Part shown: in pieces, positions 35,495 to 53,484 of the stretch
How the letters are laid out: each line of letters starts with the position of its first letter
How positions within the stretch are numbered: the first letter of the stretch is position 1
Source: a bacterium ADurb.Bin157
GTDB taxonomy: Bacteria > Muiribacteriota > Ozemobacteria > Ozemobacterales > Ozemobacteraceae
Direction: 5' to 3'
Assembly (NCBI GenBank): GCA_002070375.1
Contig: MWDD01000013.1
Coordinates: 369-64,368 of the forward strand
Length of the DNA stretch: 64,000 nt
The notes under the pieces: generated by a model
Databases searched by the model: none
What the model was told of the DNA's origin: nothing
Seen by the model: the letters and a program-made list of their open reading frames with translations, nothing else
Translations under genes and position numbers: made by a program

Positions 35495-36787
35495 TTAAAC
35501 CAACTGGAACATAAGTTCGCCGCCGGCAACAAGATCTCCGTCTACTCTGGCTTCAGCCTCGACCTTGCCTGTTGCTCCTCTGACTTTTGTAATTTTAATT
35601 GTAAAGTCAACCCTGTCTCCGGGGACAACCGGTTTTCTAAATCTGACTCTGTCTATACCACAAAAGAATGGTGTTTTACCTTTGTTTTCTTCTTGCGAAA
35701 GAAACAGGACTCCGGCCACCTGCGCCATAGCTTCTACGAGGAGAACACCGGGCATAATTGGCTTATGAGGATAATGACCATTAAAAAATTCTTCATTTGT
35801 AGTTACATTTTTATAACCGCAAATAGATTCACCGGGCACTAAAGACACGATTCTGTCAACTAGCAAGAATGGATATCTATGTGGTAAAACAGATTTAATT
35901 TCTTCTATATACATCATAACATCGGAGTCCTTTCTGATTGAAACCTGATTAAATTTTTCTTTTAATAATTTAGCAAACTTTGTATTAAAATCATGGCCGG
36001 ACTTTTCTGCAATTAAGTGCCCTTTAAGATTCGCACCCAAAAGCGAGAAGTCACCTATCAAATCTAAAATTTTATGCAAAACAAGCTCTTTTGCATCTCT
36101 TAAGCCGCCTTCGTTTCTTATTGTTCCATCGTTATTAATTACAATTGCGTTTTCTAAGCTTCCACCCCGCGCCAAGTCATTTGCCTTAAGCATCTCAAAT
36201 TCGTGTTCAAAACCGAATGTTCTTGATATTCCGATTCTCTTTAAATATTCTTCTTCATTAATTTCGACATGAATAGTTTGCGGCGCAATTATACTATCGG
36301 AATAAGCCAGAGTAAAAGTTACTTCAAATTTATCCGATGGCAAATAGGTCATTTTTTTGCCTTTTTCTTCCAAAAAAAGTTTATCTTTTAGAGAAATATA
36401 TACCTTAGGTTCTTCTTGCTCTTTTATACCGGCCTCAAGTATAGCCTTTACGTATTCACGTGCGCTCCCATCCATTACCGGGGGTTCCACATCATTCAAA
36501 TCAATAAACATGTTATCGATGCCAAGGCCTTTTAATGCAGAAAGCACGTGTTCAACAGTGTTTACCACGGCATCGTTTTCTTTTAATACTGTTCCTCTGT
36601 TTGTTGATATTACATTTTCAAGTGAGGCCTTAATTTTGGGTTTATTTGGTAAATCTGACCTGATAAAAACGACTCCGGTGTTTTCAGGAGCGGGCAAAAA
36701 CTTCATCACAACGGCTTTACCGGTATGAAGTCCTATTCCCTCAAAGAGAGCATTTTTATTAATAGTTCTTTGTTTATTGTTATTCAT
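35495..36787 (-). CDS. lpxC-fabZ: Bifunctional UDP-3-O-acyl-GlcNAc deacetylase / 3-hydroxyacyl-ACP dehydratase (LpxC-FabZ fusion)
   Basis: 430 aa. N-terminal LpxC (GIGLHTGKAVVMKFLPAP, HxxHD-type region). C-terminal FabZ hot-dog (LPHRYPFLLVDRI, FFNGHYPHKPIMPGVLLVEAMAQ). Confidence 0.85.
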   Translation of the reverse strand: MNNNKQRTINKNALFEGIGLHTGKAVVMKFLPAPENTGVVFIRSDLPNKPKIKASLENVISTNRGTVLKENDAVVNTVEHVLSALKGLGIDNMFIDLNDVEPPVMDGSAREYVKAILEAGIKEQEEPKVYISLKDKLFLEEKGKKMTYLPSDKFEVTFTLAYSDSIIAPQTIHVEINEEEYLKRIGISRTFGFEHEFEMLKANDLARGGSLENAIVINNDGTIRNEGGLRDAKELVLHKILDLIGDFSLLGANLKGHLIAEKSGHDFNTKFAKLLKEKFNQVSIRKDSDVMMYIEEIKSVLPHRYPFLLVDRIVSLVPGESICGYKNVTTNEEFFNGHYPHKPIMPGVLLVEAMAQVAGVLFLSQEENKGKTPFFCGIDRVRFRKPVVPGDRVDFTIKITKVRGATGKVEAEARVDGDLVAGGELMFQLV

Positions 36788-40914: not shown

Positions 40915-43407
40915 TCAATACCCATCAAAATCGTGTAGGCGATTATACTGCCTGTCTACGTTTCTGTAAACTTTTTTGAGAGTCTCTTCGTTCCTTTTAT
41001 CCGAGTCTAATACAGGAACATAAAAGGCTTTAACTTCTGATAATCCGGTAACATCTATTGCAGTTTTAACGCCGCCGGAGAATTCTGACTGCACCGTAGA
41101 AACTGTTTTACTCGACAGAGTCGATTTAACGAATGTTACTACTTTGTCAATAGTTGGGGCCGCCCCGTCATCATATTTTGCTCTTTCGAGGCCTGCTGCC
41201 AAAATTTCGGCTTTAGCAATGTTTTCCCAGCTATTTCCGAATTGGTTATAGGTTTTTGTATTTGCTTCTTTAACAATTGCCGACAAATTTTTGTCTATCT
41301 GTGCTTCGCTATAGCCTTGTCCGCGCATTTCATTCACTTTCATGTTAACGTATTCATTTCTGTATGCGCTGGGCTTAACCATTGAGCTTGAGTTATAAAC
41401 TTGTCTGACGATATTTTCTACCTCAGCTCTCTGCAATTCTTCTGTTGTGGTCGAGAACATTTTGTCTTTAAATGATGCGGCATCTCCGTATTTAAATTGA
41501 GTTTGCTTAAGCACCTGTCCATGTTCGTCTCGAACCACGACATATGTTTTTCCGTCGTCTCCTTCTTCAAGGGAGCCAAACAGTTCAGAGGTTTGCACGT
41601 CAAGCTTTTTTTCCATCTGCTCTATTTTTGCATTCGATTTTTCTGCGGCTTTAAAGTAACCTTTTGTTACTTCGTCTTGAGCCATTTCTCTTATTTCAGC
41701 GGGTGATTTACCGGCATTTTCTTCTTTTGAGGCCAAATTTTTCATTTTAAATTCGATATATGATTCTCTTCCGAGGGATTTAGCCAGTTCAGCCTCTCTG
41801 TTGAATTCAATTTCAGCCTCGACCTCTTTTTTAATTTCTTTAATCAACTCTTTGTTTTCGGGAGAATTTTGTGATGCAACAGCTTCGGCTTTTGCGGCGG
41901 TATAAGCATTTTTCAGATCACCCAATTCTTGGGAATAATCTCTGAGAGCTGCCGTGTATTCTCTTCTTGTTGCGAAATCAGAGGGTTTAGGCTTAAGTGA
42001 TTTTTTAATTTCGAGCTGTTGCCTGATATTATCAGCCTTTTTCCATTCTTCGCTTTCGCTCTCGTATGTACTCTGCACTTTTTTGGCTTTTTCTGCAGGC
42101 ATATCTATCAATCTTGTTTTTGCCAGAGAAACGCTTACCATAGCGAGCTGGGTAGAAGCATTAGAAATCATTGCGTTTTTCCCTGCATCAGACAATTTAA
42201 TTGACATGTAGGAGTTTTCTAATTCAGTAATTTTGGCTTCGTAATAGTTCCATGCGTTCGAGCCTTCTTCGTATCTTAATTGTTCTAATCTGTAATCTTC
42301 AATTTTTTTGATGATACTTTCTTTTTGTATTTGTGCAGACGCCGCTCCTGATGCAAATGCAAAAGGATTACTTATGACTGCGTTAGAAATTAAATTTGCT
42401 TTTGATGTTGTTCCGAACAGTTTGCTCGAGACTGTTTTAGCTAATTTTGTTTCTGCACCGAACCTGCCTGCGATCCCCCCCAGTATACCTGATATAGCGG
42501 CTGAAGCAAGGGCAGATTTTTCGTCTTGAATAAAATTATCAATAGTATACTTTTTTTTAGTAATTGTATCTAATTCTTCAAGGCAAGCCACCAACTCTGC
42601 CTCTTCTGACGATGTAAGAGTTCCTTTAAGGTAAAGGTTTTTGATTTTGCTTTTGAGCTCCGCTTCTTTTTCGTCGTAATTATAGTAGTGGTCATACCAA
42701 AGGTTAGTTACTCCGGCCTTTACAACGTTTGAGACAGTGCTTCCCGCGAAGCTTACGGCACCGGCTTTAACGGCAGACGTAACAATTGTTTTTGCCGTAA
42801 GAGGACCTATTGTTTGCAACATACCGCCTGTGAGCATATTAAATGGGGCCAAAGCACCGCTTATTGCGGCATTTATACTTACTTCTTTTAATATTTCGGA
42901 GTCAGGCTTTTTATTCTCTGCAGTTCTGAAAGAATTTTTTCTTTTTTCGTAAGCGTAAGTTATAATAGCAGAAGTGGCAGCACCGGCCAACACAGCCCCC
43001 ACGACTACCCAACCGAGGGGGCAGACCAATGCGGCAGAAAGAGCCATTACGGCCAATGTTGGCAATAAAGCCTTACCTACTGACCAAGCAATCTCTTCGA
43101 GTTTGCTCATTTCTTTGGCAATTTTTTCTTCTTCGGCCTTGGAAGCTTCCAGATCTTTCTCAATTGCTGTCTCGCTTATTTGAGCAGTCCCGGATTCTGT
43201 CTTATCTTCTGCCGTTGCTTGTTGATTTGTCTGAACAGAGAAGATGCTTTTTGCCGACTGATCAGCATGTACGGTCGCGACCGGAAGTGCATTATAAGCA
43301 ATATTATCGAATATACCGGGACTTACGCCTATAAGAGCGGCAATAAGAAGCAAACCCAGCAAACGGTGCAAAGCGTATTTTTTGTTAATATTTTTTGTTA
43401 TTTTCAT
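40915..43407 (-). CDS. Hypothetical 830-aa secreted/membrane protein: long coiled coils, a central TM hairpin and Gly/Ala-rich amphipathic segments
   Basis: Signal peptide (…VATVHA). Coiled-coil regions rich in Glu and Lys. Hydrophobic hairpin LLPTLAVMALSAALVCPLGWVVVGAVLAGAATSAIITYAY. Gly/Ala-rich amphipathic helices (AAISGILGGIAGRFGAE). No recognisable catalytic motif. Confidence 0.5.
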   Translation of the reverse strand: MKITKNINKKYALHRLLGLLLIAALIGVSPGIFDNIAYNALPVATVHADQSAKSIFSVQTNQQATAEDKTESGTAQISETAIEKDLEASKAEEEKIAKEMSKLEEIAWSVGKALLPTLAVMALSAALVCPLGWVVVGAVLAGAATSAIITYAYEKRKNSFRTAENKKPDSEILKEVSINAAISGALAPFNMLTGGMLQTIGPLTAKTIVTSAVKAGAVSFAGSTVSNVVKAGVTNLWYDHYYNYDEKEAELKSKIKNLYLKGTLTSSEEAELVACLEELDTITKKKYTIDNFIQDEKSALASAAISGILGGIAGRFGAETKLAKTVSSKLFGTTSKANLISNAVISNPFAFASGAASAQIQKESIIKKIEDYRLEQLRYEEGSNAWNYYEAKITELENSYMSIKLSDAGKNAMISNASTQLAMVSVSLAKTRLIDMPAEKAKKVQSTYESESEEWKKADNIRQQLEIKKSLKPKPSDFATRREYTAALRDYSQELGDLKNAYTAAKAEAVASQNSPENKELIKEIKKEVEAEIEFNREAELAKSLGRESYIEFKMKNLASKEENAGKSPAEIREMAQDEVTKGYFKAAEKSNAKIEQMEKKLDVQTSELFGSLEEGDDGKTYVVVRDEHGQVLKQTQFKYGDAASFKDKMFSTTTEELQRAEVENIVRQVYNSSSMVKPSAYRNEYVNMKVNEMRGQGYSEAQIDKNLSAIVKEANTKTYNQFGNSWENIAKAEILAAGLERAKYDDGAAPTIDKVVTFVKSTLSSKTVSTVQSEFSGGVKTAIDVTGLSEVKAFYVPVLDSDKRNEETLKKVYRNVDRQYNRLHDFDGY

Positions 43408-43601
43408 CGGTTATACTCCGTACATAGTCTATATTGTTTAAGAGTATAACAAAAAAGTGTAAAAATGTGAACTGCGCCCTCTAAAAGTTTCGTAAAATGA
43501 GCAATCTAAGGTCTGAAAGTATATAGAATTAGTTTTGTGCGCTTGCCTTATAATTAGGTCTGATGTATAATCAGAGACAAATTACAATACCGGAGCAGAA
43601 A

Positions 43602-44606
43602 ATGCCACAATTAAGAAAAGACCCGGTTACTAAAAGATGGGTAATTTTGTTGCATGAACAAAAAAAATTACCTGCAGATTTTAAAATAGAGCACGCTCCC
43701 AAACAAACAAACAAATGCCCATTTTGTCCCGGCAACGAAAACATGACTCCGGTTGAGCTGATGTCATACAGAAGCGAAAACACGCTTCCCAATGAGCCCG
43801 GCTGGCAAGTTAGGGTAATACCGAATCGGTTTCCCGCTCTTCAAATTGAGGGCGACTTAGACCGCATGGGGTTAGGCGTATACGACATGATGAACGGTGT
43901 CGGCGCTCATGAAGTAATTATCGAAAGCCCGAATCACGAAGACGGATTCCATAATTACAGTTCCGAGCAGATATCAAGGGTATTACACACTTATGTAGAG
44001 CGCTACAGAGATCTTTCACGCGACCGTCGGTTCAGATATATTTTAGTATTTAAAAACAACGGGTCAGCTGCCGGCGCAAGTTTAGATCACCCTCACTCTC
44101 AACTGATAGCGACTCCCATTATTCCCAAAAGGGTAATGGAAGAACTTGAAGGTGCCAAAACTTATTATTACTACAAAGAAAGATGCGTATTTTGCGACAT
44201 TATTCGTCAAGAACTAAGCCAAGGCGAGCGCATAATTCATGAGAACGAAAGTTTTGTTGCATTTGAACCTTTTGCCTCAAGGTTCCCGTTCGAGACTTGG
44301 ATAGCCCCCAAAGACCATAAAGACTGTTTCGGAGACATTGACAAAAGCGAAATTGACGGTTTGGCCGACATTATGCAGGCCACCATAAAAAAGCTCATAA
44401 AAACCTTAGACAACCCGCCGTTTAATTTTATAATTCATACCTCACCGTGCGGCGAGCACTGCACAGACTATTTTCACTGGCACATCGAAATAATGCCGCG
44501 CGTCACAAAAATAGCCGGGTTTGAATGGGGTTCGGGTTTTTATCTTAATCATATGTCACCTGAGCGCGCCGCTCGTTTTCTTATTAATCCAAATTACAAG
44601 GGATAA
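43602..44606 (+). CDS. GalT-like HIT-superfamily nucleotidyltransferase/phosphorylase (galactose-1-phosphate uridylyltransferase family). Paralog 1.
   Basis: CPFCPGNE Zn-site motif and the HxHxQ active-site motif (DHPHSQLIATP). The ORF track starts at 43563. The ATG at 43602 (MPQLRKDP) has the SD GGAG and aligns with the paralog's start. Confidence 0.65.
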   Translation: MPQLRKDPVTKRWVILLHEQKKLPADFKIEHAPKQTNKCPFCPGNENMTPVELMSYRSENTLPNEPGWQVRVIPNRFPALQIEGDLDRMGLGVYDMMNGVGAHEVIIESPNHEDGFHNYSSEQISRVLHTYVERYRDLSRDRRFRYILVFKNNGSAAGASLDHPHSQLIATPIIPKRVMEELEGAKTYYYYKERCVFCDIIRQELSQGERIIHENESFVAFEPFASRFPFETWIAPKDHKDCFGDIDKSEIDGLADIMQATIKKLIKTLDNPPFNFIIHTSPCGEHCTDYFHWHIEIMPRVTKIAGFEWGSGFYLNHMSPERAARFLINPNYKG

Positions 44607-44609
44607 AAC

Positions 44610-45611
44610 ATGCCACAGCTTAGAAAAGACCCCATTTTAAAACAATGGGTTATTATTTCTCCCGAAAGGGGAAAACGTCCTTCTGACTATAAAAAAACCA
44701 TTGAAGAACCGGACGATTCTGCTGAATGCCCGTTTTGCGAAGGAAAAGAGCATTTGACACCAAATGAGACTCTTTCTTTCAGAACGGCGGGCACCGACGC
44801 GAACAAAAAAGGCTGGTGGGTCAGAATTATTCCTGATTCAGAACCAATTCTGCGCCCCGAAGGTGAGCCCGGTCGTGAAGGTTTCGGAATGTTTGACGCT
44901 ATGAATTCAATCGGTGTTCACGAAGTTGTCATTGAATCACCGAACCACAACTCACGCATACACAACGCCACCAATGATCAGGTCAGAGAAATCATCTGGG
45001 CATATAAACAAAGGCTTCTTGAGATAAAAAAGAACCCAAGCTACAAACATTTTATGGTGGTAAAAAACAGCGGAGCAGGGCTGAGCAACTTTACTCACAG
45101 TCATTCTCACATCATTGCCACTCCGATTATTCCTAAGAGAGTCGAAGAAGAAATCGAAGGAGCCCGCGAATACTACCATTACCACGATCGCTGCCTATTT
45201 TGCGACATCGTTAAGCAAGAGCAAAAAGACCAAATGAGATTAGTTTACGAGAACGACCAATTTATTGTATTCTGCCCCTTTGCGTCTCGTTTTCCTTTTG
45301 AAATGCAGATTATGCCGAAAAGCCACCAACCGTTTTTTGAAATGATCGAAAACAATTTGGTTCAAACCTTTGCCGATGCTCTTCAGAACACTCTCAAGCG
45401 CCAAGAAGCGGTATTACCCGGTCAGCCCTACAACATGGTGTTGCACACTTCACCTTGCTCAGATTCTTACAAAGACTTTTATCACTGGCACGTGGAAATA
45501 ATACCTAAACTGACTAAGGTCGCGGGGTTTGAGTGGGGCTCAGGTTTTTATATTAACCCGACTACACCCGAAGACGCAGCAAAGGCACTCAGAGACATCG
45601 CCATAAAATGA
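44610..45611 (+). CDS. GalT-like HIT-superfamily nucleotidyltransferase/phosphorylase. Paralog 2.
   Basis: MPQLRKDPILKQWVI..., CPFCEGKE, and the motif HSHSHIIATP (HxHxH, HIT-like). About 45-50% identical to paralog 1. 3-nt spacing from paralog 1. Confidence 0.65.
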   Translation: MPQLRKDPILKQWVIISPERGKRPSDYKKTIEEPDDSAECPFCEGKEHLTPNETLSFRTAGTDANKKGWWVRIIPDSEPILRPEGEPGREGFGMFDAMNSIGVHEVVIESPNHNSRIHNATNDQVREIIWAYKQRLLEIKKNPSYKHFMVVKNSGAGLSNFTHSHSHIIATPIIPKRVEEEIEGAREYYHYHDRCLFCDIVKQEQKDQMRLVYENDQFIVFCPFASRFPFEMQIMPKSHQPFFEMIENNLVQTFADALQNTLKRQEAVLPGQPYNMVLHTSPCSDSYKDFYHWHVEIIPKLTKVAGFEWGSGFYINPTTPEDAAKALRDIAIK

Positions 45612-47350
45612 CCGACAAAAGTACGTTTCGTCGCTTATTGCCTTACTTTAAGCCTCATTTTTCAAAGCTTATTCTTTCTATAGTCAGCATGCTGACTGTT
45701 ACGGCCGTTCATTTGGCACGCCCGATGGTTTTGCGCGTTATCATCGACAAAGCCGTTCCTCAACAAAACATTGAGCTTGCGATAAAATACGCCGGTTTTT
45801 TTTTGGTTTTACTTGCTCTTGGGGCCTTTGCCATGACTTTGCGCGTGAGAATAATGGCGCGCATGGGCGCAGAAATTGTCGCAAAAATAAAGAGCGAAGT
45901 TTTTGAGCACATTCTAAGCCAGGGCGTTAGCTTTTTTGACAAAAACCAACCCGGTCGTCTGATTTCTCGAACTGAATCAGATGCAGACCAGATAAAAAGA
46001 ATGTTCACGCAAGATTCAATGCAAGTTTTTTCTTCAATTATGCTTGTAGTGGGCACCATTGTTTTTTTATTTATGGAAAATGTAACGGTAGGTTTTATAA
46101 CAATAGCCACCTTAGCGCTTATATCGCTGGTTATGTATAGTTACCTGTCATACGTTCAATCGATCATGACCGAAGTCAGGACTCAAAACAGTCTTTTAAC
46201 CGGCTACATAACGGAATACGTACAGGGTGTTCCTCTCATACAGCTTTACAGGCGGGAAAACGAAGTAAAAAAGCGGCTTCATGATTTTTCTAAAAAAAAG
46301 GGTGACTTAGACGTTTACGCCGGTTTCATAGATTACGCTATAGGCTCAACAACCTTCAGACTTATCAGCGAAGTCGGTCTTTTGGCTGTATTATTTTTCT
46401 ATTGCAGCAAAGAAATTTATGCCGGTGCCATGACAGTTGGCACAATGGTAATGTTCATCGAACTATTGAGGCAGTTTTTCAGACCTCTCGGCTTTATGGT
46501 CGAGGCGATATCATCTCTACAATCCGCATTAGCAGCCGGAGTCAGAGTCTTTGCCATATTAGACAGCAAACCCGCGATAATAAACGAAGGCTCGGTGTTG
46601 TCTGACGAAGAACTTACAAAAGATATCACCTTTAACAATGTCAGTTTTTCATATAATTCAGAACCGATTTTAAAAAATGTATCATTCAAAATCGAAAAGG
46701 GCAAAACTGTTGCAATAGTAGGTGCAAGCGGCTCAGGAAAAACCACTTGCGCGAATTTACTATTGCGTTTTTATGATACAAATTCGGGAAGCATATGTAT
46801 AGGTGATCGGAACATAAAAGAAATTAAGCCTGAAAACCTGTTAAAGAACACTGCTTTGGTCTTGCAAGAGATTTATCTTTTTCCCGGAACGATAATGCAA
46901 AACCTAAAAGCTTTTCGCAACGACATAGATGACGAATCTGTTATAAAGGCATCGCGTGAGATAGGCGCCCACAATTTTATCCAAAAATTGTCGAAAGGCT
47001 ACGAAACAGTTCTTTCCGAAAGGGGTTCCAACGTTTCATACGGAGAAAGGCAGTTACTTTCTTATACCAGAGCGTTGGTAAAAGATCCAAAACTATTGAT
47101 TTTGGACGAAGCCACATCTTCGGTCGATGCCATTACCGAAATGCAACTGCAAACAAGTATGAGTAAGTTAATGCAAAACAGAACCTCATTAGTTATAGCC
47201 CATCGACTTTCGACTATAAAGAATGCAGATAAAATTATCGTCTTAGAAAAAGGTGAAATAATCGAAAGCGGCACCCACGAAGAATTAATTAAGTTAGGCA
47301 AAAAATACTACGAATTGGTAAACGTTCAAAATGGCAACAAAGCACCCTAA
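45608..47350 (+). CDS. ABC transporter ATP-binding/permease (type I exporter, MsbA-like half-transporter)
   Basis: 580 aa. Six TMs, Walker A GASGSGKTT, signature LSYGERQLLS and Walker B LLILDEATS. Confidence 0.85.
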   Translation: MTDKSTFRRLLPYFKPHFSKLILSIVSMLTVTAVHLARPMVLRVIIDKAVPQQNIELAIKYAGFFLVLLALGAFAMTLRVRIMARMGAEIVAKIKSEVFEHILSQGVSFFDKNQPGRLISRTESDADQIKRMFTQDSMQVFSSIMLVVGTIVFLFMENVTVGFITIATLALISLVMYSYLSYVQSIMTEVRTQNSLLTGYITEYVQGVPLIQLYRRENEVKKRLHDFSKKKGDLDVYAGFIDYAIGSTTFRLISEVGLLAVLFFYCSKEIYAGAMTVGTMVMFIELLRQFFRPLGFMVEAISSLQSALAAGVRVFAILDSKPAIINEGSVLSDEELTKDITFNNVSFSYNSEPILKNVSFKIEKGKTVAIVGASGSGKTTCANLLLRFYDTNSGSICIGDRNIKEIKPENLLKNTALVLQEIYLFPGTIMQNLKAFRNDIDDESVIKASREIGAHNFIQKLSKGYETVLSERGSNVSYGERQLLSYTRALVKDPKLLILDEATSSVDAITEMQLQTSMSKLMQNRTSLVIAHRLSTIKNADKIIVLEKGEIIESGTHEELIKLGKKYYELVNVQNGNKAP

Positions 47351-49172
47351 AATTTATTACGTAAAGTGGATAGCCAAGCAATACAAAATGCATTGGAAGT
47401 TTGTTTTGCTGCTTGTTGCTTTAACTGTAATAACTGCGGTTTTAACGGTGGTTTTTCCTATATTGCTCAAACATATAATCGACAGTATTACCAATAACCT
47501 GTCATTATTTGAGAGCGGCAAAATCACGGTGCCCGAAGCAGAATCAGAGCGGAACAAACAGCTGCTTATCTTGTTATTTATGGGGTTAGGCCCTATTTTT
47601 AACGGCATATACCCGTGGCTTCGCCATAAAGGCAACGTAACTTTCGAGACCTTTCTGAGAGACAGTTTTTTTGCGAGCATACTCAAAAAGAACAGTAATT
47701 TCTTTTTAAAATTCAGAACGGGCGATTTGTCTGCAAGGCTTATTCATGACTTAAGTTCGCAATTTCAAGGGCTGCCCTGGCTTTGCTGTTCGGGCATATT
47801 CCGCGCGTTCAATTCAACGATTTTGATTATATTTTGCTTAGCGGCGATGTCAATGCTCAACCTTAAACTTACGCTGATAGCCTGTATACCACTTCCCATA
47901 ACTTTAGGAATTTTTATGTTATTAGACAAAAACATTTCAGAAAGTTTCAAAAAGGTTCACGATGGTGTATCTGAGGGCAATGATTTTTTAGAAGCGGCTT
48001 ATTCAGGCATAAAAATCATAAAATCTTTTAACTCACAAAATGCGCAATCGGCCGAATACGGCAAAATACTCAGCCGCAGAATCGAGTACGAAACTAGAGC
48101 TGAAAGTTTGTTTGGTAACTTTATGACATTGTTTGAGTTTTTAAACTATGTGGGCGAGATTTTTATACTTTTGTTTGGTGGCATAATGGTAATTAAGGGC
48201 GAAATGAGCATTGGCACTTATTACGCCTTTTTTAGTTATTTAGGGATGATTATTTTTCCTTTGATGGATATTCCGAGTATGTTTGTCAGCCTCAACGAAA
48301 GCAGCATTTCTATAGACAGGCTTGAAGCGATTAACGAAGACCCTTCACACGAATCGATAAGCGAGGGCACAGACCGCGAAAGAATTAACACTATCGACAG
48401 CATTGTTTTTAAAAACGTGAGTTTTGAGTTTCTAAAACCGTCAGATGCTCTTAAAGAGGGCGATGAAAAAGAGGCAAAAGCACCTTTTTCGCTCAAGAAC
48501 ATTAATTTAACTATAAAAAGGGGCGAAAAAGTGGCTATAGTGGGGCAAATTGGCTCCGGCAAGACCACTTTACTGAATCTTATAGCGCAAATGCTTTTGC
48601 CAAAGAATGGCGAAATTTTTGTGAACGGTATAAATGCAAATAGAATAGCGCTTTCTTCAATAAGGGATAAAATCGGGTATATACAGCAAGAGCCGCTGAT
48701 TTTTTCTGAAACGGTAAAAAATAACATTAGTTTTTGGCGCGACATACCCGACGAAAAGGTCTATTTATGCGCATCTATAGCGCAGCTAGATAAAGAGATC
48801 AAGCTGTTTGAGCACGGTTTTGACGAAGAGATTGGGCAAAGGGGTGTTAATATTTCTGGGGGTCAGCGGCAGCGTTTATCGATTGCCAGGGCGTTGGCTG
48901 GCTCTCCCGAGTTGCTTTTGACGGACGACATAACCGCAAGTCTGGACTCGGAAAACGAACAAAAGTTATGGAACGACCTAAACCGGGAATACCCGCACTT
49001 AACATGTGTTGTAATAACTCACCGTATATCGACGGCCGCCATGGCTGACAGAATTATAGTATTAAAAGACGGAACAATTGTTTCAGAAGGCACTCACAGT
49101 GATCTTAAAAACAATTGCGGGGTTTATCAAAATCTGTCGAACCCGGATGCAAAGTACGACGATATTATTTAA
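47331..49172 (+). CDS. ABC transporter ATP-binding/permease (second half of the heterodimeric exporter)
   Basis: 613 aa. TMD, Walker A GQIGSGKTT, signature ISGGQRQRLSIARAL and Walker B LLLTDD. Overlaps the upstream ABC gene by 20 nt. Confidence 0.85.
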   Translation: MATKHPKIYYVKWIAKQYKMHWKFVLLLVALTVITAVLTVVFPILLKHIIDSITNNLSLFESGKITVPEAESERNKQLLILLFMGLGPIFNGIYPWLRHKGNVTFETFLRDSFFASILKKNSNFFLKFRTGDLSARLIHDLSSQFQGLPWLCCSGIFRAFNSTILIIFCLAAMSMLNLKLTLIACIPLPITLGIFMLLDKNISESFKKVHDGVSEGNDFLEAAYSGIKIIKSFNSQNAQSAEYGKILSRRIEYETRAESLFGNFMTLFEFLNYVGEIFILLFGGIMVIKGEMSIGTYYAFFSYLGMIIFPLMDIPSMFVSLNESSISIDRLEAINEDPSHESISEGTDRERINTIDSIVFKNVSFEFLKPSDALKEGDEKEAKAPFSLKNINLTIKRGEKVAIVGQIGSGKTTLLNLIAQMLLPKNGEIFVNGINANRIALSSIRDKIGYIQQEPLIFSETVKNNISFWRDIPDEKVYLCASIAQLDKEIKLFEHGFDEEIGQRGVNISGGQRQRLSIARALAGSPELLLTDDITASLDSENEQKLWNDLNREYPHLTCVVITHRISTAAMADRIIVLKDGTIVSEGTHSDLKNNCGVYQNLSNPDAKYDDII

Positions 49173-51924: not shown

Positions 51925-52445
51925 AAAAGCGGTCTTTAAAACATTTTTTTATAATGCCTTCTTATCAAATCAGGCTTACGGCTTTTATGTGTTTGGTCAT
52001 TTTTATTGGGTTCATTTTACATGGCTGCCTTTTGTATTATATTGCGGGCAAGAATATTCAGAACGGTTTTTTTGCGGGAGCGAATGAAATGAGGCAGGTT
52101 TGGGACATTCTAAAGCCTGCTGTTATCGTGACAAACGGCGTAAGTTTTATTGTTATGAGTGTTTTTATGTTTTTAGTAGCGATATTTATATCTCACAAGC
52201 TTGCGGGGCCGATTTTAAAGATTTCGGGGCATTTAAAAAAGATAGCCTCAGGCAAACTGCCTTCTGCGACACTTAAATTAAGGGAACACGATGAGGGGCA
52301 GTTGCTTTGCGACACTGTGAACGAATTGCAAACCGGTTACAGAGCAACCTTTTTAAGCATTAAACAAGTAGCGGATTCTATGAAGGCACAGGATCCTGCA
52401 AAAAGCAAGTTAAACGAGATTTTATCGGAGATAGAATTTGAGTGA
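51921..52445 (+). CDS. Small membrane protein with a HAMP-like segment
   Basis: Two TMs (LTAFMCLVIFIGFILHGCLLYYI, VSFIVMSVFMFLVAIFISHKLAGPILKI), then an amphipathic helix. Confidence 0.4.
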   Translation: MKKRSLKHFFIMPSYQIRLTAFMCLVIFIGFILHGCLLYYIAGKNIQNGFFAGANEMRQVWDILKPAVIVTNGVSFIVMSVFMFLVAIFISHKLAGPILKISGHLKKIASGKLPSATLKLREHDEGQLLCDTVNELQTGYRATFLSIKQVADSMKAQDPAKSKLNEILSEIEFE

Positions 52446-53484
52446 AGTAAAGAAAACTGCATTTTTTTTAATTTGTTTTTTGGCAGGCATCGCGTCTTTC
52501 GGCAATGATGGCGAAGCCGAGAAAAATCTTGCCGAAAAGGGTTTGCCGAGTTATCACAAATATCTGAAACAAGCCGGGGACACGCAAAACTATGTTGGTT
52601 CTGAATCTTGCGCCAAATGTCATTCTGATATTTATGACGAATGGAAACTGAGTCAACACGCGCGAATGATAAGAAGCGTCGAAGAAATCAAACAGACTGT
52701 GCCGATTCCGTTTAATGAGCTTGAAGTCAGCGAAGACAAGATTATAATGGTTTTGGGTTCTCATTATGTTCACAGATTTGTGGCAGAGCATAACGGCAAA
52801 GCGGTAGTGTTGCCTAAAATATGGGATATACGTGAAAATCGCTGGCTTGAGACCTACGATTACGGATGGCAATCAAAAGAATACACAAAAGAATGCGCAG
52901 GTTGTCACACAACAGGTTTTTCGGCAGAAAATGAGTGTTTCACAGAGCCGGGAGTCGGATGCGAAGCTTGTCACGGACCCGGTGAGAAGCACATTAAAAC
53001 TCAGAATCCGAAAGACATTGCTTCTCGCCACAGTCTATCGCCTGAAAAACTTGAGATGGTATGTATTTCTTGTCATACATCGGGCATGGACAACAGCTAT
53101 ACTTACAGTTTTCCTGTCAGTTACAGGCCGGGCGACGATATTACGAAACATTTTTCGGGTTTGACGCCGAAACCGGGACAAACTGCCGAGAACTTTTCGG
53201 GTGACGAGAGTTATGAAGACCGTCTCAGACAGTGGACCTTTTTAAAGCCGAGGCTACTATTGGCAAGCGGCTTAACATGCGATTACTGCCTGAATTTCAG
53301 GAATGTAAAAAAGAAAAACGAAGGCGAATATTTGACATACAATCAATATTGCATGACTTGTCACTCAGACAAAGAGGATCACCCTGAGCAGTCTCCCGGC
53401 ACAGACTGCATTGTATGTCACAAGCCAAACCGCCATTTAAACGGCAGTTTATCTATTCACGACCACAAATTCAGGTTCGAGTGA
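52438..53484 (+). CDS. Multiheme c-type cytochrome (six CxxCH motifs)
   Basis: Signal peptide, then CAKCH, CAGCH, CEACH, CISCH, CMTCH and CIVCH, plus one CxxC without His. Confidence 0.75.
   Translation: MSEVKKTAFFLICFLAGIASFGNDGEAEKNLAEKGLPSYHKYLKQAGDTQNYVGSESCAKCHSDIYDEWKLSQHARMIRSVEEIKQTVPIPFNELEVSEDKIIMVLGSHYVHRFVAEHNGKAVVLPKIWDIRENRWLETYDYGWQSKEYTKECAGCHTTGFSAENECFTEPGVGCEACHGPGEKHIKTQNPKDIASRHSLSPEKLEMVCISCHTSGMDNSYTYSFPVSYRPGDDITKHFSGLTPKPGQTAENFSGDESYEDRLRQWTFLKPRLLLASGLTCDYCLNFRNVKKKNEGEYLTYNQYCMTCHSDKEDHPEQSPGTDCIVCHKPNRHLNGSLSIHDHKFRFE

Follow-up and report, generated by a model that had tools for sequence, protein, structure and literature searches.

The 64,000-nucleotide stretch of DNA analysed here (the window) is contig C13 of the 3.4-Mb, 93.8% complete genome of bacterium ADurb.Bin157, designated G000, and our subject is a locus of four co-directional plus-strand open reading frames within it. 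Two of these, here called T1 and T2, encode paralogous GalT-like nucleotidyltransferases of the histidine triad (HIT) kind, and the other two, abcA and abcB, encode half exporters of the ATP-binding cassette (ABC) type. Taken together, our analyses favour, with a probability of roughly 0.55, the view that T1 and T2 form an ancient pair, obligately inherited together, of HIT nucleotidyltransferases of the ADP-glucose phosphorylase type, linked to alpha-glucan (glycogen-type) metabolism and working as a T1:T2 heterodimer, and that the exporter beside them is independent. The features of the locus are as follows.

43408..43601, no strand assigned: divergent intergenic region between an 830-amino-acid (aa) gene on the minus strand and T1; holds the promoter-like site
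43543-43571, plus strand: promoter-like site, TTGCCT-17-TATAAT, 10/12 consensus matches
43602..44606, plus strand: T1, class I GalT / ADP-glucose-phosphorylase-like HIT enzyme, 334 aa; alternative ATG at 43563
44610..45611, plus strand: T2, paralog of T1, 333 aa, 47% identical to T1
45608..47350, plus strand: abcA, half ABC exporter (transmembrane domain, TMD, then nucleotide-binding domain, NBD); consensus Walker B, atypical signature
47331..49172, plus strand: abcB, half ABC exporter (TMD-NBD); canonical signature, no catalytic Glu

The original prediction had reported these four co-directional genes, and all of them are present, with T1 starting at 43602. This start is favoured over the ATG at 43563 because the promoter-like site, a consensus match only, ends at 43571 and thus sits downstream of that ATG, and it is supported by the recurrence of the same N-terminus among relatives: nearly all recovered T1 and T2 starts read MPQLRKDP or a close variant (14 T1 and 13 T2 of 19 loci, one T2 start, in L049, being mis-called). 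Junctions of 4 nt or less had been predicted throughout, which is correct for the 3-nt gap between T1 and T2 and for the 4-nt ATGA overlap between T2 and abcA, and wrong for abcA and abcB, which overlap by 20 nt. No kinase or epimerase gene was found within the four-gene operon, as had been noted for sugar kinases and epimerases from the sequence alone.

Over 329 residues, T1 and T2 share 47% identity, in agreement with the 45-50% first estimated; the contrast in their active-site motifs (HPHSQ in T1, HSHSH in T2) and the presence of CxxC in each were likewise described accurately, with two such motifs, CPFC plus CVFC or CLFC, in each protein. The proposed profile check against PF01087, PF02744 and DUF4921 was passed by both proteins for all three families, the Pfam scores for the first two being 65.5 and 37.1 for T1 and 41.1 and 41.1 for T2 (gathering cut-offs 22.1 and 29.2). 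The HxHxQ string that is a feature of the GalT branch of HIT proteins is found in T1 (HPHSQ) and not in T2 (HSHSH). In addition, the metal-site residues (CPFC, the His of HEV, the first motif His, the second CxxC, and His239, His292 and His294) are invariant in the alignments of both T1 and T2, with 13 sequences in each.

Among solved structures, both proteins are closest to Arabidopsis At5g18200 (E 2e-69 for T1 and 3e-62 for T2; PDB 1Z84, 1ZWJ and 2H39), followed by the archaeal uridylyltransferase 6k5z (E 1e-38), while the GalT proteins of E. coli and human gave much weaker matches (E 1e-21 to 1e-14). The plant protein has the same length, is similar from end to end and shares the class I GalT fold, and its CxxC/His metal sites, nucleophile His and C-terminal GFE.G.G sugar loop are common to T1 and T2. 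T2 was modelled with AlphaFold at moderate quality (pLDDT 67, pTM 0.72), and the top fold matches of the model, 1zwj, 2h39 and 1z84, are all At5g18200 (E 3e-26, TM 0.70/0.77). One of the PDB entries for At5g18200 is titled ADP-glucose phosphorylase with bound ADP-glucose, and McCoy et al. in 2006 reportedly described this activity for the plant protein. Our literature searches found no characterised bacterial enzyme of this kind, returning plant papers or unrelated matches only.

Two unlike active sites

The catalytic motifs of T1, namely Asn75 in PNRFPAL, the AAGASL loop and H163-P-H165-S-Q167, are orthodox. Both Cys/His metal sites are also present in T1; the N-terminal arginine pair is absent from it. 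T2 keeps that pair (SPERGKRP; R20 and R23) together with both metal sites and the nucleophile His165, and it carries Asp76 in place of the Asn, a rebuilt loop ahead of the motif, where T1 has AAGASL, and H163-S-H165-S-H167. When 125 HxHxQ sequences were set against 18 of the HxHxH type, the groups were separated at just two alignment columns, one holding Asn in 122/125 of the former and Asp in 14/18 of the latter, and the other Gln versus His. Among T2 orthologs HxHxH is present in 55 of 57, and Asp plus His occurs together in 50 of the 56 with at least 65% identity, the remainder being five sequences outside the search pattern and one with Asp plus Gln.

According to the available part of PMC5081055, Gln188 of human GALT contacts the phosphate and ribose of UMP and interacts with Asn97 of the same chain, and Gly159 and Ser161 of E. 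coli GalT, in the loop equivalent to AAGASL, bind substrate. The Asn changed in T2 was matched to the human and E. coli residue by its motif and by an offset of +20 that was checked on the sequence of E. coli GalT. Because of the contact between Gln188 and Asn97 and this equivalence of motifs, an interacting Asn-Gln pair appears to have turned into Asp-His in T2. In 15 HxHxH sequences the metal sites, the nucleophile and the sugar loop are invariant, and T2 is therefore predicted to be a remodelled enzyme and not a dead one.

The arginines of the N-terminal S-P-x-R-x-x-R-P segment are distributed in the opposite way. Both are found in 13/13 T2 copies, and the pair in 0/13 T1 copies (the first Arg only in two copies from family f4, neither in the other 11), whereas single-copy HxHxQ representatives keep the two arginines in 105 and 99 of 118 cases. 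In the same source, the equivalent Arg28 and Arg31 of E. coli bind UDP-glucose, and the active site of class I GalT is described as composite, built from both chains (PMC5081055). Simulations of human GALT, as far as the accessible text of PMC8513031 reports them, have the Ser45-Arg51 segment of one chain bonding residues 98-101 of the other (Arg48A-Phe99B, Ser45A-Ala101B, His47A-Pro100B and Arg51B-Asp98A). Because of these cross-chain bonds, the arginine segment may be expected to serve the active site of its partner.

The plant enzyme is one gene product with HxHxQ and, according to a preprint (bioRxiv 10.64898/2026.09.13.751320), a homodimer with its active sites between the subunits. In contrast, the present system comprises two fixed paralogs, one of them without the arginine pair and the other with Asp and His for Asn and Gln plus a rebuilt phosphate loop. 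A comparable division was seen in a fusion protein. The 599-aa singleton P0124 joins a module with the arginine segment and the C-terminal half, without CPFC, HEV or HxHxQ, to an orthodox module that starts at CPFC and has no arginine segment. By its motifs, this fusion would follow the same split logic as T1 and T2, an empty module with the segment complementing an orthodox one without it. In the monomer model of T2, confidence is low for residues 1-35, 77-103, 154-163 and 303-315, the segments found at the GalT subunit interface; this coincidence is no more than suggestive.

Distribution of the pair and its probable link to alpha-glucan metabolism

The distribution of the pair was examined in a Riflebacteria comparison set of 41 genomes, 25 of which, including G000, belong to family f1. 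T1 followed by an adjacent T2, in the same order, was found in G000 and in 24/24 other f1 genomes, and 16 of these loci were re-checked by tblastn. A third, orthodox paralog (HPHSQ plus ERAKRP) occurs in most of the larger f1 genomes and is absent from G000. In the sister families f4 and f6, a glycosyltransferase family 5 (GT5) glgA is placed between the two genes in 4/4 loci (2/2 f4 genomes and 2/3 f6 genomes); this intervening gene has the starch-synthase domain PF08323 (E 1e-73 to 1e-86), the upstream copy is always HxHxQ and the downstream copy always HxHxH.

A side feature of the f6 loci is a phosphoglucomutase-like gene after T2 (L051:1760-3172, minus strand; L052:9704-11116, plus strand) in which neither the phosphoserine motif TASHNP nor the metal loop DGDADR is found, whereas the genome's own phosphoglucomutase, on contig C5, has both. 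Judged by these motifs, the look-alike is probably non-catalytic.

Beyond the Riflebacteria, 77 loci encoding a relative were compared from other phyla. In 28 of them glgA adjoins the GalT-like gene on the same strand, and one further arrangement, GlgE plus GlgM beside the GalT-like gene, was found in 1/77; some of these loci are short, so both counts are lower bounds. All 77 are single-copy, 75 with HxHxQ, while L086 and L135 gave other strings. Several fusions were seen among the 150 best cluster representatives, namely a GlgA-GalT protein of 814 aa (P0140, whose cluster has 19 members, with the name Coprothermobacterota on some of them), a GH57-GalT protein (P0184) and a GalT-GalT protein from a euglenid (P0130).

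Within the comparison set, the pair and the enzymes of alpha-glucan synthesis are distributed among the families as follows (number of genomes in brackets after each family).

f1 (25, with G000): pair 25; GlgC 0 (best about 130 bits, in an 840-aa fusion); GlgA 0; GlgM-type glycosyltransferase family 4 (GT4) 24; GlgE 23, adjacent to GlgM
f4 (2): pair 2; GlgC 2 (each genome with two GlgC-like genes at 338-380 bits, under the cut-off of 425); GlgA 2; GlgM 0; GlgE 0
f6 (3): pair 2; GlgC 0; GlgA 2 (the same two genomes); GlgM 0; GlgE 0; none of these in the third genome
f2, f3 and f8 (8): pair 0 (a distant single copy in G031); GlgC 8, at or near the cut-off; GlgA 8; GlgM 0; GlgE 0
f5 (2): pair 0; GlgC 0; GlgA 2; GlgM-type 2; GlgE 2
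f7 (1): pair 0; GlgC 0; GlgA 0; GlgM-type 1; GlgE 0

The pair thus always co-occurs with a glucan enzyme that uses ADP-glucose, except in G012, where GlgM was not found, and mostly without GlgC. In G000, contig C27 (L064:10331-13490) carries a GT4 GlgM-type synthase (TIGR02149, 536 bits, cut-off 302) followed directly by GlgE, an arrangement conserved in 22-23 of 24 f1 genomes, in which no GlgC was found, and an alpha-glucan phosphorylase is encoded on contig C32. Textbook bacterial glycogen synthesis starts with GlgC. The order of GlgM-type GT4 and GlgE resembles the mycobacterial GlgC-GlgM-GlgE route, which the partly available PMC11046441 describes; unlike that route, GlgC was not found in any of the 25 f1 genomes. 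The same text calls GlgM "essentially linked to GlgC" and mostly actinobacterial (PMC11046441).

From the gene order, motifs, homology, phyletic patterns and fusions, which are observed directly, we infer the substrate, the dimer and the direction of the reaction in the following way. As in the reaction of the Arabidopsis homolog, a histidine would take AMP from ADP-glucose, releasing glucose-1-phosphate, and would then pass the AMP to phosphate, giving ADP, with both steps reversible. T1 and T2 would form a heterodimer with one orthodox site, T1 Asn75/His165/Gln167 completed in trans by the Arg20/Arg23 segment of T2, and one remodelled site, T2 Asp76/His165/His167 facing the arginine-less N-terminus of T1; either homodimer would be half-orthodox at both of its sites. 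In f1, the pair would most likely link glucose-1-phosphate and ADP-glucose for GlgM, a connection proposed because GlgC and GlgA were not found in this family but GlgM and GlgE are present. T1 and T2 would then add to the ADP-glucose phosphorylase family a new form that is made up of two proteins and connected with glucan metabolism in a lineage that lacks GlgC. A more speculative extension, which we regard as doubtful, is that the storage glucan of f1 is made without GlgC, the rebuilt site providing a pull or a control that plain phosphorolysis lacks, so that the pair would open an ATP-sparing, GlgC-independent entry to bacterial alpha-glucan synthesis.

The pair, and not the exporter, which is ordinary, is the object of interest here. 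A gene mis-named "GalT" adjoins glgA across many phyla, one of which has the two fused, and in the present GlgM-GlgE lineage without GlgC it persists as a two-protein set; the terms "histidine triad" and "ADP-glucose phosphorylase" do not occur in the accessible part of a 2024 review of prokaryotic alpha-glucan enzymes. If the pair does supply or drain ADP-glucose, glycogen metabolism would gain an extra step and thousands of "galT" annotations would be corrected. The pair would also show cleanly how a homodimeric enzyme can evolve into a heterodimer whose two sites differ.

Competing explanations and the exporter

The original prediction had left a choice between distinct specificities and a heterodimer with one non-canonical subunit; the active-site difference on which both were built is conserved, and the heterodimer with one non-canonical site is the option that we prefer. 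The other option, taken further, is that T1 and T2 are two separate homodimers acting in sequence or in parallel, T1 as an ADP-glucose phosphorylase and T2 with a different second half-reaction (e.g., hydrolysis of ADP-glucose, or another acceptor) or a different nucleotide, a possibility that we take seriously without thinking it probable. The HxHxH motif of T2, which comes together with the Asp, is like that of HIT hydrolases, and with every metal ligand and the nucleophile in place, and these and the sugar loop kept across 15 HxHxH sequences, T2 could by its residues be a stand-alone enzyme. Outside Riflebacteria, the HxHxH type is seen again in clusters that bear the names Methylomirabilis and Schekmanbacteria, and in two Methylomirabilota genomes such copies and the orthodox copy are on different contigs. 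However, a T1 homodimer would lack the arginine pair that 99-105 of 118 single-copy relatives keep, the order and adjacency of the two genes are strict in 25/25 genomes, and the losses in T1 and T2 are complementary, with the same split in the P0124 fusion.

Several further observations weigh, together with the unlinked Methylomirabilota copies and the potential self-sufficiency of T2, against the heterodimer or its link to glucan synthesis. In a FastTree tree of the GalT-like family, in which many forks are weakly supported, the T2 copies of three families fall into one all-HxHxH group of 12 (support 87) within a clade of support 97. The trans role of the arginines is taken by analogy from human GALT and not from T1 and T2, and T1 Asn75 was equated with E. 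coli Asn77 by motif, the phmmer alignment to 1hxp being gappy there. A rule that an HxHxH site is always paired with a missing trans arginine was considered and rejected, as 6-7 of 10 HxHxH representatives keep the arginine pair; at least one arginine is missing in 7/10 other non-canonical representatives (nine without the nucleophile His and one with HPHSN), and this pattern misfits a simple rule of complementation in trans. Concerning the glucan link, GlgC lies near the GalT-like gene in three loci from other phyla (L089, L090 and L093), f4 has the pair plus two GlgC-like genes, and f5 and f7 have GlgM with neither the pair nor GlgC. These three families break a strict rule of the pair replacing GlgC, and the co-occurrence represents about three independent lineages. 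No glucan gene was found within about 7 kb of the pair in 16/16 f1 loci, so that in f1 the link rests on ancestry and on co-occurrence among kin, again effectively three lineages. GlgM may also be supplied with UDP-glucose instead of ADP-glucose, since G000 has other sugar-1-phosphate nucleotidyltransferases, namely RmlA, a 333-aa enzyme adjoining UDP-glucose dehydrogenase and the 840-aa transferase-mutase fusion. As reported in the sources available in part, GlgM prefers ADP-glucose and uses UDP-glucose about 10-fold less well (PMC11046441), and Pseudomonas aeruginosa is a GlgC-less organism that uses UDP-glucose (PMC8084333).

A more conventional explanation is that T1 and T2 are ordinary galactose-1-phosphate uridylyltransferase isoenzymes of the Leloir pathway. 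Their orthologs are named GalT in public records, where they carry Riflebacteria, Rifleibacterium or Ozemobacter labels, GalE is present in G000, and both proteins narrowly pass TIGR00209 galT_1 (117.3 for T1 and 114 for T2, cut-off 102.1). The class I GalT enzymes known from E. coli and human (PDB 1HXP, 1GUP and 5IN3) share the fold, the ping-pong histidine and the zinc-binding first His with T1 and T2 (PMC5081055). Yet these enzymes are distant, their matches being far weaker than those to At5g18200, both proteins fall well below the cut-off of 448 for NF008724 (142.2 for T1 and 136.5 for T2), and the context in relatives is glgA and not gal genes. In addition, the galK profile TIGR00131 gave 0 matches in G000 at its 93.8% completeness; because of this missing Leloir context a Leloir role is unlikely, and taking all of the evidence into account we consider it most improbable.

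The original prediction had tied the pair to the exporter, with export of a nucleotide-linked compound or remodelling of a glycolipid as the outcome, and a single four-gene system of this kind has several points in its favour: the 4-nt overlap between T2 and abcA, the same arrangement in the same-genus genome G001, and the divergence of the operon from a lipid A and BamA cluster upstream (unk830, bamA, skp, lpxD, the lpxC-fabZ fusion and lpxA). Nevertheless, in a comparison of neighbourhoods covering 20 related genomes, with about 5-10 kb per side of T1 and T2 and less at contig ends, abcA and abcB lie behind the pair in 1/20 loci, that of G001, and 19/20 have no ABC gene in the fetched flanks; in 80 loci from other species, no homolog of abcA or abcB was found. 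The comparison of neighbourhoods, which had been set beforehand as the check that could refute exporter coupling, thus found the homologous pairs outside the genus of G000 to be free of ABC genes, and the functional coupling to the exporter is not supported. Orthologs of abcB (E 1e-100 or better) occur in 15/25 f1 genomes. In G009, G017 and G021, from three other genera, abcA and abcB (53-59% identical) stand as a separate two-gene unit with an upstream spacer of their own of about 400-800 nt and no GalT-like gene nearby, and in G009 this unit is found at 69 kb of a 5.2-Mb contig that carries the pair at 4.83 Mb. The proposed export or glycolipid function is accordingly unsupported and a joint system very unlikely, and abcAB appears to be an independent heterodimeric ABC unit that was joined to the pair only in the genus of G000.

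The label of an MsbA-type exporter is not backed by the profile scores, as abcA and abcB miss every MsbA cut-off (TIGR02203, cut-off 602: 387 and 272, respectively). Each gene encodes a transmembrane and a nucleotide-binding domain. The Walker B of abcA, LLILDE, has the catalytic Glu and its signature, VSYGE, is atypical, while abcB has the signature ISGGQ and a Walker B, LLLTDD, without the catalytic Glu. Because these motifs are complementary, the two proteins are predicted to form a heterodimer with one degenerate ATP site. Heterodimeric exporters with one such site are known, of the TM287/288 and BmrCD types. The present unit resembles them in its two adjacent TMD-NBD genes and in the pairing of the Glu loss in abcB with the atypical signature of abcA, and it differs in being linked to a HIT pair, in one genus only; by score it is not an MsbA equivalog.

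In four metatranscriptome runs, from three studies, contigs map to T1 and T2, with carry-over of DNA being possible, and the junction between the two genes is spanned in 2/4 runs, from two studies (44553-45023 and 44550-44758). For the ABC genes there are three small contig pieces only, none of which bridges T2 and abcA; one starts 23 nt before the start codon of abcA, which could be counted for a joint system and is no proof of co-transcription. Such contigs cannot rank expression, and the uncovered parts of abcA and abcB prove nothing on co-transcription.

In a separate observation, about 4-5% of letters in the RNA-library contigs over the 5' half of T1 (window 43600-44100) do not match the window, against 0-1 letter in those over T2, a contrast that points to a mixture of strains or to a recombination boundary inside the pair.

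The 830-aa protein encoded upstream (window 40915-43407, minus strand) heads the bamA-skp-lpxD-lpxC/fabZ-lpxA cluster and is 90% identical in a same-genus genome; it had no Pfam match, and its scores in an Atlas fold search were all 0.80 or below. In the same cluster, LpxC and FabZ form a single fused protein of 430 aa (window 35495-36787, minus strand). On the other side of the locus, a multihaem cytochrome c gene with c554-, c7- and MtrC-like matches (window 52438-53484, plus strand) follows two thioredoxin-fold genes.

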